Shown: positions 17,086-58,115 of the stretch, one piece after another
How positions within the stretch are numbered: position 1 is the stretch's first letter
How the letters are laid out: each line of letters opens with the position of its first letter
Sequence record: PP400788
Origin: Escherichia phage FL33
Strand: one strand, 5' to 3'
DNA: 64,000 nucleotides
Program-made: the position numbers and the translations under genes
The notes under the pieces: generated by a model
Database searches by the model: none
Told to the model about the DNA's origin: nothing
The model's input: the letters and a program-made list of their open reading frames with translations, nothing else

Positions 17086-17093
17086 TATTTATA
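17086..17093 (-). promoter_or_regulatory. T4 late promoter TATAAATA for soc
   Basis: Minus-sense TATAAATA about 30 nt upstream of soc ATG. Confidence 0.55.
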
Positions 17094-17123
17094 ATAAATT
17101 CTCGCGGCTTTTAAGACGAGCTG

Positions 17124-17642
17124 TTAATAACCTCGGTCTTGACGAGCGAAGTTTTCAGCATTTTTCAGATAATAAAGTTTAAAGATTTCTTCTGCTGTAA
17201 GACCAAGACCTTGGAACATGTTCAGAACGAAATGGAGAATATCAATCATTTCAAATTTAATTTCCAATTGGTCTTGTGGAGACAAATCAGTAATCAGAGT
17301 TTCACGGCGTTCACCATGCTGAGCTTTCCACGGCTTCCATACAGCAGATGCATCTTTTTCGCCATTGCTCATACCACCAAGAGAAGTCAGAAGTTCGCGG
17401 AATTCATCATCAATATAATCTTTCTGATTACGCAGCCAATCAACAACTTCACCTGCAGTAGCCAAATCATCAGGATGACGGTTATATTCAGGTTTATCTT
17501 TAGCTAAACGAATCTGCAGAGATTTCTGCATGTCAAGCATTACCTGCAGCGGGTCTTTTTCATCACCGAGAATATCCCAATATTCATTTTGAGCTTTATC
17601 AGCGCCTTCAATCAGTTGTGAACATTCGTTAAAGTAAGCCAT
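17124..17642 (-). CDS. 56: dCTPase/dUTPase gp56 (MazG-like), 172 aa
   Basis: MazG-like nucleotide pyrophosphohydrolase; start set at MAYFNE (17642) with AGGAAA RBS; track ORF extends to 17735. Confidence 0.8.
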   Translation of the reverse strand: MAYFNECSQLIEGADKAQNEYWDILGDEKDPLQVMLDMQKSLQIRLAKDKPEYNRHPDDLATAGEVVDWLRNQKDYIDDEFRELLTSLGGMSNGEKDASAVWKPWKAQHGERRETLITDLSPQDQLEIKFEMIDILHFVLNMFQGLGLTAEEIFKLYYLKNAENFARQDRGY

Positions 17643-17713
17643 TATTTTTCCTTTCAATTCATGGGTTAGTAGATTAATTATACAATAAATATATAAAGCA
17701 ATAAGGAGGACAT

Positions 17714-17914
17714 ATGGTACAAAAATTAATGGCACTTGTTAATGCCATCAAAGGTAATAAAAAACGTATAGCTTTTACTATTTCTGCTATGATAGGAATT
17801 TTACTTTGGAATTTTGTTTTATCACCAGTTGCTATTGCTCATGGCGTTAGTATTCCAGTAATTACTCTTGATACATTCGTGGATTTAGCATTTGCTTTAG
17901 TTGGGTTAATTTAA
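17714..17914 (+). CDS. hypothetical small membrane protein, 66 aa, on the opposite strand
   Basis: Strong SD AAGGAGGA 4 nt before ATG; two hydrophobic segments; fills the 56-61 gap. Confidence 0.4.
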   Translation: MVQKLMALVNAIKGNKKRIAFTISAMIGILLWNFVLSPVAIAHGVSIPVITLDTFVDLAFALVGLI

Positions 17915-18939
17915 ATCTTAGCATATTTAGATAGCCGCATTTTAGCCATCAACCCTTGGGCAATATTATTTTTCATATATTCCATAATTTGTTCAGGGGT
18001 TGCACCTTCCTTTCTAATCATATCATTGACGTCTTTTGATTTCCAGGGAGATTTATCCCAAAACATAACCCTTTCTCCTGCATCAACTAATTTAGTCATT
18101 CGTTTGATAGTGTCAGGGTGACGAGGTTCATTATCTAAAACCCACACTCGTCTATCTTTAAATGGAACAATTTCTAGGTCTAATTGACCGCCTGTAATAG
18201 CTATACCATTTTCAATAAAAAGCGAATCTATAGGTCCTTCTAGAACATATACATCGCCATCTTTAACCCGTTCGACACCGTAAATTTTTGTTGCCTCAGG
18301 ATAAGCTTTGATGGTAATATACTTTTGTGGAGCATCTTTCTTTAATGCACGCCCTTGAAACGACTCGGCTTTTCCATTAGCATTATAAATTGGAATAACA
18401 AGACGAGGCTCAGGTATTTCCTTTTTATATGTTCCCGGTGCTATGCTATTAACTAATTTAGGCCATTCAGTTGTAAACCAAAGATATTTCCATTTATCCT
18501 TTGGAATACAACGAGCTTTTACGTATTTTATAATTGGATGGTCTTCCGCCAGTTTATCTAATCTAATGCATGACGGAAGAGATTTAATTATTTTCTTCTC
18601 AGGTTGTTTAGGAAGTTCTTTAGGTTTTTCTACTGGACGACTTTTACCTTTTTCTTTTCTTATTTCAAAGATATACTCACGATATAAATCAGGTTCAAAC
18701 TCCTTTAAATATATTCCGATTGGTGCATGATAGTTACAGTTATAACAATGAATATTTCCTTCATTATTATCGCCATAATACCATCCACGAGCTTTATTCT
18801 GGTCGGTTTTTGAATCTCCACAAACAGGGCATCTAAACCGCAATTTAAAAGTTGAACTATTATTTACTTGTGTGAATTTAGGTAAATGAGCTAATGCACG
18901 GTATGCAAACTCATTATCAATCCAAGGTATTGATGACAT
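17911..18939 (-). CDS. 61: DNA primase gp61, 342 aa
   Basis: N-terminal Cys4 zinc ribbon (CPVCG...CYNC), TOPRIM-like core; length equals T4 gp61 as recalled. Confidence 0.9.
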   Translation of the reverse strand: MSSIPWIDNEFAYRALAHLPKFTQVNNSSTFKLRFRCPVCGDSKTDQNKARGWYYGDNNEGNIHCYNCNYHAPIGIYLKEFEPDLYREYIFEIRKEKGKSRPVEKPKELPKQPEKKIIKSLPSCIRLDKLAEDHPIIKYVKARCIPKDKWKYLWFTTEWPKLVNSIAPGTYKKEIPEPRLVIPIYNANGKAESFQGRALKKDAPQKYITIKAYPEATKIYGVERVKDGDVYVLEGPIDSLFIENGIAITGGQLDLEIVPFKDRRVWVLDNEPRHPDTIKRMTKLVDAGERVMFWDKSPWKSKDVNDMIRKEGATPEQIMEYMKNNIAQGLMAKMRLSKYAKI

Positions 18940-19107: not shown

Positions 19108-19734
19108 TTAACCTCTATTCATAAAAGCATTAAAAATTTGGTCATCAATAGAAACATTTACTTTAGACTGTTTTTCAGATGGCAATTCATATCCACATAT
19201 TACAATTTTATGATCAATATCAAAATACACAGAAGCAATATGATTAATGATATTTTCAGTGAAGTCTAAATCAACATCAATGTCTTTTTGACCAAAACCC
19301 AAAGGATAAATAATGCGAGTAATTCGATTATCTTTAACAAAGATTCCACCGACATACTCTGTGCTGCGTTTAAAGTCTACACGCCGACGAAATGAAAAAT
19401 ATTCAGGCTCTTTATGAGCTCGGCTCATAGGGCACAACGAATAACTAGAATAAGAGATGTCAAATCCTACGCCTTCAATATGAACTAAATTGTCATGATT
19501 AAACCAATTATAATCATATGCCAAGTCCATTAGATTGTCATATGTGAAAGGCACCGGATTAACATCATTGGTCACAAGCATATAATTAGCAACTGCTATA
19601 ATTTCATTATTTTTAACGAAAACAAACCGTGATTGATGCGAATGACCTGGACCTGTGTTTTCACGATTAATGATATAACACTGGGCACCTTTATATTTGT
19701 ACGTGTCTTTACACTTGTGCATTTGATAAAGCAT
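19108..19734 (-). CDS. hypothetical protein, 208 aa
   Basis: ORF. Confidence 0.55.
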   Translation of the reverse strand: MLYQMHKCKDTYKYKGAQCYIINRENTGPGHSHQSRFVFVKNNEIIAVANYMLVTNDVNPVPFTYDNLMDLAYDYNWFNHDNLVHIEGVGFDISYSSYSLCPMSRAHKEPEYFSFRRRVDFKRSTEYVGGIFVKDNRITRIIYPLGFGQKDIDVDLDFTENIINHIASVYFDIDHKIVICGYELPSEKQSKVNVSIDDQIFNAFMNRG

Positions 19735-51808: not shown

Positions 51809-52528
51809 TTAGGATTCTTCTAAATGTCTTTTCTGAAAAGTTGATACCATACTACGATACGGTTCATTTGGATATCCATGTTTTATAGCTTCCTTTGTAA
51901 ATTTTCTCCATCCACATTTAGTTTCTTTCCAAAGCTCGAATAATTCATCTTCATACTGCCATATAGTTAAATGAGAACGCTTTGCAGCTTTAATTCCATT
52001 AATATGCTTTTCTTTTACTACAGGATTGCTTAGTTTCTTTTTAATAATATTACTAACTTTTCTAACAAAAACTGGGTCCTTATATCGTTGCGAAGTTTTT
52101 ATTGAAGTGTTTAATTTAGCTTCCGGCGTGGATGTGACCTCTTTCATCTTTTTCTTCATATGCTGTATATGATTAGGATTTTTCCATAAATTTATAGAAT
52201 GCTTTTTGCATTTTATCCTAGTTTCATCTGCAACCTTTCCTCCTTCACCCCCGTATGACAGGTTAACGCAGTTTTTTCCATATTTCAATTTACCTGCCAT
52301 GATATATAATATTTCGGCTTGTACCATTTTATCATAATTATCAAAAACTTCTAAAACCGTTTTTGATAATATATGGTCATTTGACACTTTTACACGTTCT
52401 ATATAATTTCCACTACCAACATACGAATCATTGATGTTATTAGTTATATGTCGACCATAATAGTATTTCTTAATACCTGTCTTTAAATTTAATATTTCAG
52501 TTTTATAGATAGTAAAATATTTTTTCAT
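51809..52528 (-). mobile_element. Seg-like GIY-YIG homing endonuclease gene, 239 aa
   Basis: TIYKTEILNLKTGIKKYYYGRH ... YVGSG motif arrangement as in T4 Seg proteins; stop overlaps neighbour start. Confidence 0.55.
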
Positions 52529-57171: not shown

Positions 57172-57558
57172 TTATTCGAGGGAAAGAAGATACTTACTCT
57201 GGTAAAACATTCCAGTAATATCATCTATCGTGCTTTGAATGGCTGGAGGCATTTCTTTATAAATGCTGTTAGATTGGTCTAGTATGCGATCAATCATTTT
57301 AACTGTATCAATAGGAAGTTTACTGGCATCCGGAATTGCCGGCGTGTATTTTCTACCAGAATACCCCAAATACTGCTCACCAAATTTATCAATCAAATCT
57401 GGCAACTCAGAGAAAATAAAATCGTATGCTTTGTGTCTAGCATAACTTTTAGTTTCAAAATGCGCAGAATGAAAATAAGCTTGCGCAGCCATTAATAAAC
57501 CTAAATATTCATCTGCCTTTGAAGGTTTTCCACTTTGTGAAAAGTCGCTGAATTTCAT
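57172..57558 (-). CDS. hypothetical protein, 128 aa
   Basis: ORF immediately downstream of rI. Confidence 0.55.
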
Positions 57559-57848
57559 TCAGTCTCCAATTTAATGTTCATAATTCTAGCGTATGATTGT
57601 GCCATCTCCGCGCCTCGTTCTATACATTCAAAATCGGAAGAGCACGGGTCATTTTTATAGGTCGTTCGCATGAAACTATAGAACTGTTCAGATGATTCTA
57701 CGCTTTTATTTTCAAAAAGCATATAAACATGTCTAATACCAGATTCCATAAATTTATCAAAATGAGGATCAACATTCGCTTCAATCGGCGGAGATAAAAC
57801 AAACGCTAATCCTAGCATGGCGAATAATGCCGCTGCTTTTAAGGCCAT
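57555..57848 (-). CDS. rI: lysis inhibition regulator RI, 97 aa
   Basis: N-terminal membrane anchor then periplasmic domain; length equals T4 RI as recalled; adjacent to tk. Confidence 0.8.
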   Translation of the reverse strand: MALKAAALFAMLGLAFVLSPPIEANVDPHFDKFMESGIRHVYMLFENKSVESSEQFYSFMRTTYKNDPCSSDFECIERGAEMAQSYARIMNIKLETE

Positions 57849-58073: not shown

Positions 58074-58115
58074 ATATACCCCTTTAGTTAGATAAACCTA
58101 TTTATAACTTTTGCA

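Follow-up and report, generated by a model that had tools for sequence, protein, structure and literature searches.

The T4 late genes soc, e, 49 and rI are embedded in otherwise early or middle regions, on the early strand, and each possesses its own promoter of the TATAAATA type, 20–30 nt before the start codon; TATAAATA, which occupies positions −13 to −6, is the consensus of T4 late promoters. Other T4 genes encode tiny proteins of the inner membrane that act on envelope processes and that laboratory growth does not require, namely Imm (83 aa, expressed early), RI (97 aa, a releasable anchor) and Ac. Class II holins and pinholins such as S21 and T7 gp17.5 combine a size of 60–70 aa, late expression and membrane helices with a charged tail and a location in a lysis cassette, and type I toxin-antitoxin systems place a membrane toxin under an overlapping antisense RNA. 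In the case of gene e, RNA structure prevents the translation of early read-through transcripts (PMC3014915), and position −13 is poorly conserved among the late promoters of T4-like phages (PMC1524935).

The gene examined here has already been catalogued, as dam.1 in T4 and as the protein family phrog_2024, and is functionally uncharacterised. T4T (HM137666) annotates it as dam.1 at 17724–17924 (+), between dam and gene 61, and its orthologues include RB32ORF030w, ar1_033 of AR1 and XAO17614.1 of Escherichia phage FL34. Our analysis concerns the copy carried by a stretch of 64,000 nt from Escherichia phage FL33 (record PP400788), hereafter called the window, of which a sequence-only reading was available.

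In the window, gene 56 (dCTPase; 17124–17642, minus strand) is recognised by tblastn with T4 gp56 (74% identity, 172 aa, E 1e-84) and gene 61 (DNA primase; 17911–18939, minus strand) lies to its right. The gap between them, given as 268 bp in the sequence-only reading, indeed extends over 268 bp (17643–17910) and is occupied by an ORF of 66 aa with an ATG start on the plus strand (17714–17914, translated MVQKLMALVNAIKGNKKRIAFTISAMIGILLWNFVLSPVAIAHGVSIPVITLDTFVDLAFALVGLI). The ORF converges on gene 61, and the two stop codons share 4 nt (17911–17914) within the palindrome ATTTAAAT (17909–17916, no strand assigned); Ile-stop is the end of both the 66-aa protein and the gene 61 product. The same convergent geometry with gene 61 is found in T4T, G2469, ESCO47, ZX14, JS98 and phi1_146055, with an identical 4-nt stop overlap in T4T, G2469, JS98 and phi1_146055, and throughout the tblastn records the plus-strand ORF nearly always directly adjoins gene 61 at its 3′ end.

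The DNA of the ORF is 100% identical to that of FL34, which matches the window exactly over the 1851-bp stretch compared (window 17100–17950). The annotation of FL34 places 87 of 88 CDS on the minus strand of the window over 50 kb and the 66-aa ORF is the sole CDS on the plus strand, which agrees with the earlier description of a lone antisense gene in a minus-strand region. Equally sound was the statement that dam and gene 69 are missing at the locus: tblastn finds no Dam homologue in the whole 64-kb window and no segF/69 orthologue at the 56–61 locus, and soc directly adjoins gene 56. About 34 kb from the soc-56 locus, a distant GIY-YIG homologue of T4 SegF (51929–52510, minus strand; 26% identity, E 4e-7) is probably a different homing endonuclease of the seg type.

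The idea that the ORF sits there instead of the T4 oriA, 69 and dam, by contrast, has to be abandoned, for the ORF is present in T4 as well, where it is flanked by dam and gene 61. The window protein is 94% identical to T4T dam.1 (T4Tp032, ADJ39749.1), and the strand, the promoter-like motif, the Shine-Dalgarno sequence and the 4-nt overlap with the gene 61 stop are all shared. The two loci differ on their left side, where the dam gene (780 bp) parts dam.1 from gene 56 in T4, whereas the window ORF abuts the putative gene 56 promoter; they also differ at the first base of the late-promoter motif, A in the window and G in T4. In T4, dam alone stands between gene 56 and the dam.1 ORF. As for the other T4 features, the annotation puts oriA within gene 56, at its 5′ end, while gene 69, now called segF, is located between 56 and soc, on the opposite side of gene 56. 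Since T4 has dam.1 beside gene 61, the window is a locus without the optional dam insert, whereas the presence of the ORF next to 61 is constant.

Comparison with other genomes illustrates how variable this left side is. The left neighbour is gene 56 in the window, G2469 and JS98, dam in T4, dam and a 62-aa ORF in Bas37, dam and a 186-aa ORF in a T4-like contig (L013), a homing endonuclease in Klebsiella phage Roth19, and hypothetical genes in ZX14, phi1_146055 and the metagenomic contig L021. The 186-aa ORF of L013 (1841–2401, minus strand) lies immediately upstream of dam, end to end with 1 base shared, and gives a weak, sub-threshold match to the Pfam DpnII (GATC) restriction endonuclease family (E 0.0045, 16.8 bits for a cutoff of 23). 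It might be a nuclease partner of the GATC methylase, either divergent or surviving as a remnant.

An ORF of this size calls for some caution, because several plus-strand ORFs of 60–120 aa occur nearby by chance and its length alone is therefore not beyond chance. It could in principle be a fortuitous frame in an AT-rich spacer, conserved on account of minus-strand signals such as the gene 61 terminator or the promoter of 56 or dam; the same 270 bp do contain a putative gene 56 promoter and a terminator-like minus-strand hairpin of 11 bp followed by UUUUUGU, situated downstream of gene 61, within the 5′ part of the ORF (17751–17726; −14.5 kcal/mol, z −3.2 in the window, weaker in T4). Against this explanation, substitutions are codon-aware, protein similarity outlasts DNA similarity and the Shine-Dalgarno sequence is conserved. 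The ratio dN/dS lies between 0.07 and 0.2 in most pairwise Tequatrovirus comparisons, the few higher ratios resting on 1–3 substitutions, and the window and T4 ORFs are separated by 9 synonymous and 4–5 non-synonymous changes; judging from these substitutions, the ORF is under purifying selection. Given the Shine-Dalgarno sequence, the conservation and the dN/dS values, we hold it as virtually certain that the ORF is a real protein-coding gene, and the probability of a chance ORF as negligible. The hairpin was also considered as a conserved part of the module and rejected, being absent in the homologues from Mosig-, Dhaka-, Kanagawa- and Klebsiella-phages.

The distribution of the family was established by several searches. 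By tblastn, the ORF is present in 695 phage records, with a coverage of at least 80% in 685 of them, and Tequatrovirus homologues (tblastn, phmmer) are 86–100% identical. A profile search yielded 87 clusters at 90% identity, almost all of 56–74 aa with a few shorter fragments; in every case with a named source genome or a long contig, the origin is T4-like. The window protein matches the phrog_2024 profile, annotated as of unknown function, with an E-value of 1.9e-30 (residues 2–66 against profile positions 1–65 of 65), and the divergent representatives of the ZX14, Roth19 and JS98 types all match this profile too. Orthologues that are about 50% identical, from Mosigvirus and a Yersinia phage, retain the frame and the length (65 aa). 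A second subfamily (MGTIFYQIWK...), with no more than 17–31% identity, takes this place in Dhakavirus JS98, Gelderlandvirus, Kanagawavirus and Klebsiella phage phi1_146055, as does a third type (MSEVK...) in Roth19 and L021; frame and length persist at 20–30% identity in the Dhaka-, Gelderland-, Kanagawa- and Klebsiella-phage lineages. ESCO47 carries tandem paralogues, one per subfamily (L004 2299–2502 and 2495–2692), which overlap at ATGCTTAA and have the motif NATAAATA and a strong Shine-Dalgarno sequence before the first gene only. Two family matches per genome were also observed in TH44, SP18 and TH57. The conservation of the ORF and its ribosome-binding site in T-even relatives, proposed as a check by the sequence-only reading, is thereby borne out, frame, length and a Shine-Dalgarno sequence of the GGAGG type being kept.

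No link with a characterised family emerged beyond this group. Sequence searches of Pfam, NCBIfam and PDB returned no family or structure, and Foldseek against viral structure models returned family members only. An HMM search of 1.8 billion representative proteins gave 7 hits, all belonging to the family except a marginal one in a long protein, and no tie to any characterised family. The names 'Holin', 'dCTP pyrophosphatase' and 'DNA packaging ATPase' that some members bear in the records are spurious and represent annotation noise.

The translation signal of the ORF is exceptional within the window. Its Shine-Dalgarno sequence TAAGGAGG (17702–17709, plus strand) is unique in the 64 kb and constitutes the strongest ribosome-binding site there. 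The strong signal 4 nt before the ATG announced by the sequence-only reading corresponds to AAGGAGG at 17703–17709, the spacing being 3 nt if the motif is read as AAGGAGGA; AAGGAGG has 2 copies on both strands of the window and only the one at 17703 precedes an ORF. A GGAGG, AGGAGG or AAGGAG(G) core is found at −10 to −13 in every orthologue that comes first in its operon. The predicted late leader, from about 17697, has no significant or translation-masking structure (z about 0).

The late-promoter-like sequence that had been noticed just upstream of the ORF is AATAAATA (17684–17691, plus strand), a late-promoter core of the gp55 type placed 22 nt before the ATG, from which a transcript start near 17697 can be predicted. 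It departs from the consensus at −13 only, and the T4 version, GATAAATA, has a G at this position. In 11 of 12 lineages the motif NATAAATA precedes the ATG by 12–33 nt, despite upstream neighbours that are not homologous, and is accompanied by a GGAGG-type Shine-Dalgarno sequence; across these 11 lineages, the first position (−13) takes all four bases and the remaining seven are invariant. The exception is CGG4-1, in which ATTAAATA replaces NATAAATA. In the three Tequatrovirus contexts represented by the window, T4 and L013, leftward homology stops just upstream of the motif. The background frequency of NATAAATA, over all loci compared, is 1.1e-4 per position and 0.004 per upstream window.

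The distribution of such octamers in the window points in the same direction. Only 2 copies of TATAAATA are observed for 10.5 expected in shuffled sequence, and 4 of AATAAATA for 14.7 expected, making both 4–5 times rarer in the window than in shuffled sequence. Minus-strand copies of the late-promoter octamers, at 17093, 44263 and 58106, precede by 25–30 nt soc, a 157-aa endonuclease that we take to be gene 49, and an ORF upstream of rI, all three being late-expressed loci in T4. The soc copy (17093, minus strand) is a TATAAATA only 600 bp from the ORF; the copy at 58106 (minus strand), also TATAAATA, stands before the ORF next to rI, which encodes 70 aa. The 66-aa ORF resembles the embedded late genes soc, e, 49 and rI by the possession and spacing of its own promoter motif and differs from them by its location on the opposite strand. 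No plus-strand sigma-70-like promoter is reported just upstream of the ORF. The literature searched yielded neither transcripts nor ribosome footprints nor protein data for the ORF, no paper on dam.1, and nothing relevant on T4 transcription starts, antisense RNA or ribosome profiling. From the conservation of the motif, a late gp55-dependent promoter appears probable.

The same bases may serve another signal. On the minus strand, a MotA box, TTGCTTTA (17701–17694), recognised by the T4 middle-promoter consensus, is separated by an 11-nt spacer from TATAAT (17682–17677), and this element (17677–17701) has the appearance of a gene 56 middle promoter, an equivalent of which lies upstream of 56 in T4. 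AATAAATA falls entirely within the spacer, with bases common to both signals, and could therefore be partly incidental in the window.

Related motifs were observed elsewhere in the region. A plus-strand GATAAATA lies inside gene 61.2 (window 19305–19312) and is conserved in T4 (L007 4330) and in L013 (4092); it is probably incidental to coding, because only a 34-aa ORF follows it, without spacing. Minus-strand copies of NATAAATA were found near gene 61.1 in JS98 (L016 3247), Klebsiella phages, a Yersinia phage and a metagenomic relative (L017 3256, L018 3237, L021 6133 and L006 4796 for these lineages), and the JS98 copy precedes the start of 61.1 by about 13 nt. Their position suggests a late promoter for 61.1 in the JS98, Klebsiella, Yersinia and metagenomic lineages; the window has no NATAAATA at gene 61.1.

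The convergence with gene 61 raises the question of whether the transcript matters more than the peptide. The late promoter would then fire into gene 61 and silence the primase mRNA by RNA pairing or polymerase collision, the ORF being secondary. As the stop codons of the ORF and gene 61 overlap, a terminator could not fit between the two, and on the plus strand no convincing intrinsic terminator was detected short of about 22.1 kb; a late transcript, if made, would thus have to continue into gene 61 in antisense orientation. However, the coding sequence is under purifying selection, as judged from its substitutions, and its near-perfect Shine-Dalgarno sequence is conserved. Other members of the family are also arranged differently: what separates the ORF from gene 61 is a GC-rich hairpin in Roth19, a homing-endonuclease gene in Yersinia phage P8, a 124-aa gene in L021 and a 2-nt gap in CGG4-1. 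Because of these cases, antisense coverage of 61 is not a conserved property of the module, and an antisense function as the primary one seems quite unlikely. We give still less credit to a dual module, in which one late promoter would produce both a peptide acting on the bilayer, possibly processed by signal peptidase to a 24-residue form on the periplasmic face, and a long antisense RNA over gene 61 that would help to stop lagging-strand priming at the switch to late recombination-driven replication and packaging. With type I toxin-antitoxin peptides, the known likeness of the ORF is limited to the convergent overlap with gene 61.

The preferred reading, a gene expressed late for its protein product, directs attention to the 66-aa protein itself. 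Its five K/R residues are all in residues 4–18, none occurring after residue 18, and residues 19–66 are hydrophobic except for D53 and D57, the only acidic residues; hydropathy peaks at 2.0 over residues 23–41 and the C-terminus is ...FALVGLI. An AlphaFold2 model (19-sequence alignment, pLDDT 79.8) contains three helices, an amphipathic basic one (2–12), one of membrane-spanning length (16–42) and a short acidic-hydrophobic one (52–63). The two hydrophobic helices announced from the sequence are thus roughly right, the first being of membrane-spanning length and the second short, next to an amphipathic basic helix. From hydropathy and this model, the product is very likely a small inner-membrane protein; a second span might alternatively be provided by the hydrophobic C-terminal stretch, which counts 18 aa with two Asp.

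Conservation within the family is concentrated in and around the predicted span. The 75 unique members all possess W32 and N33 (75/75), followed by P38 (74/75), G44 (73/75) and P48 (71/75), and the resulting W-N-x4-P-x5-G-x3-P core is complete in the window protein. Position 53 is acidic in 68 of the 75, and Asp28 occurs in half of the family. Asn residues within membrane helices are established drivers of association between helices. As W32, N33 and P38 are inside the membrane helix, the protein likely acts by specific intramembrane helix-helix contact.

The same region could also be read as an export signal, with the first 42 residues forming a long cleavable signal or releasable anchor and the C-terminal 24-residue peptide being the active product on the periplasmic face. 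A basic region precedes the hydrophobic core, and a pattern resembling a signal peptidase I site recurs in the family, with P38 at −5 in 74 of 75 members, A/L/T/V at −3 in 75 of 75 and A/T/S at −1 in 72 of 75, followed by H/Q-G; P38-V-A40-I-A42 / H43-G44 of the window protein obeys the −3/−1 rule. The core, however, has about 19 residues, the length of a signal anchor, above the 7–15 or so of typical cleaved signals, Thr, a poor residue for signal peptidase, is at −1 in 30 of 75 members, and an invariant W-N at mid-core, joined by Asp28 in half of the family, is unexpected in a disposable signal. Because the 19-residue core carries the invariant W-N, an uncleaved anchor is favoured, and we regard cleavage as very unlikely.

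A small membrane protein with a late-promoter motif and at least one membrane-spanning helix also evokes a holin, a pinholin or an antiholin-type lysis protein. 'Holin' is the UniRef/BFVD name of the OE5505 homologue, and the membrane helix has 8 of 20 residues alike with the signal-anchor-release domain of the RI antiholin of the window. The latter resemblance is weak and without statistical significance, and the former label is an unsupported automatic name that stands beside the two others cited above. The size, the membrane helices and the predicted late expression are shared with class II holins, but the ORF has neither their charged tail nor their lysis cassette: its basic residues are N-terminal and its C-terminus is hydrophobic, and its neighbours are replication genes rather than e, t, rI or spanin genes. 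T4 already possesses the T holin and the RI antiholin, and RI is also encoded in the window. Moreover, the positional orthologue of the ORF in phage Bas37 is non-essential and tolerates transposons, and therefore is not the essential holin. Taken as a whole, a holin-type function looks unlikely. The RI gene of the window (57558–57848, minus strand) is 97% identical to the T4 RI sequence.

The ORF product can also be compared with Imm, RI and Ac, as a predicted tiny inner-membrane protein that is probably dispensable in the laboratory and would act on the envelope. It has no detectable homology to them beyond the insignificant match to the RI anchor and, unlike them, is almost devoid of an extramembrane domain.

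The data on dispensability come from a transposon study of Bas37, in which bas37_0144 is a 201-nt plus-strand 'hypothetical protein' with a 4-nt overlap with the primase gene bas37_0145 (10.1101/2025.11.20.689424); we equate it with the window ORF by position, strand and length only. Transposons were recovered at 20 of its 24 TA sites and the gene was classified as 'Non-essential' by HIDEN-SEQ (10.1101/2025.11.20.689424, supplementary files 3 and 8), and it showed no significant change in the two screen comparisons examined, the adjusted p being 1 (10.1101/2025.11.20.689424). The HIDEN-SEQ gene table for T4 lists nothing between dam and gene 61 (10.1101/2025.11.20.689424), and the CRISPRi-ART paper, whose libraries were designed on annotated CDSs, is without data on the ORF. 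Omics and knock-down libraries of T4 that rely on the reference annotation miss the ORF because this annotation omits it: in NC_000866/AF158101, the ORF is intact and carries no annotation (NC_000866, our locus L007, 2739–2939). Its T4 coordinates are 17738–17938 on the plus strand. It is likewise intact and without annotation in JS98 (L016 1801–2001).

Taking these elements together, the ORF is the window copy of T4 dam.1, an accessory gene that stays attached to gene 61, at its 3′ end, across the Tevenvirinae genera sampled, and we consider it reasonably probable that it operates through the following late membrane mechanism. The gene opposes the surrounding early and middle unit, and would as a consequence escape read-through expression. 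Its transcription would depend solely on its own late promoter AATAAATA, requiring gp55, gp33 and gp45 and starting near 17697, and the short unstructured leader with a perfect Shine-Dalgarno sequence would ensure efficient translation. The opposite strand would insulate the ORF from early read-through and would therefore account economically for its orientation. The product is predicted to enter the inner membrane with its K/R-rich N-terminus in the cytoplasm and a single span at about residues 19–42, the G44...P48 turn and the C-terminal helix being at or in the periplasmic leaflet. Rather than a passive anchor, it would establish an intramembrane contact, through self-association or with a phage or host membrane partner. 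Its likeliest role, speculatively, would be to modulate, in a dispensable manner, some late event at the envelope, for example lysis timing or inhibition, or superinfection exclusion. No lysis or exclusion gene adjoins the ORF, and a role in lysis or exclusion in particular is put forward as a tentative suggestion that we consider rather doubtful.

This gene is conserved in at least six genera of T4-like phages, yet it is missing from the T4 reference annotation. Should the dual module hold true, an overlooked regulatory gene would exist in the best-studied phage, outside its reference annotation. If the ORF has an effect on exclusion or on the timing or inhibition of lysis, it would represent a new component of a classic system; if it has no such effect, it would be one more accessory gene.
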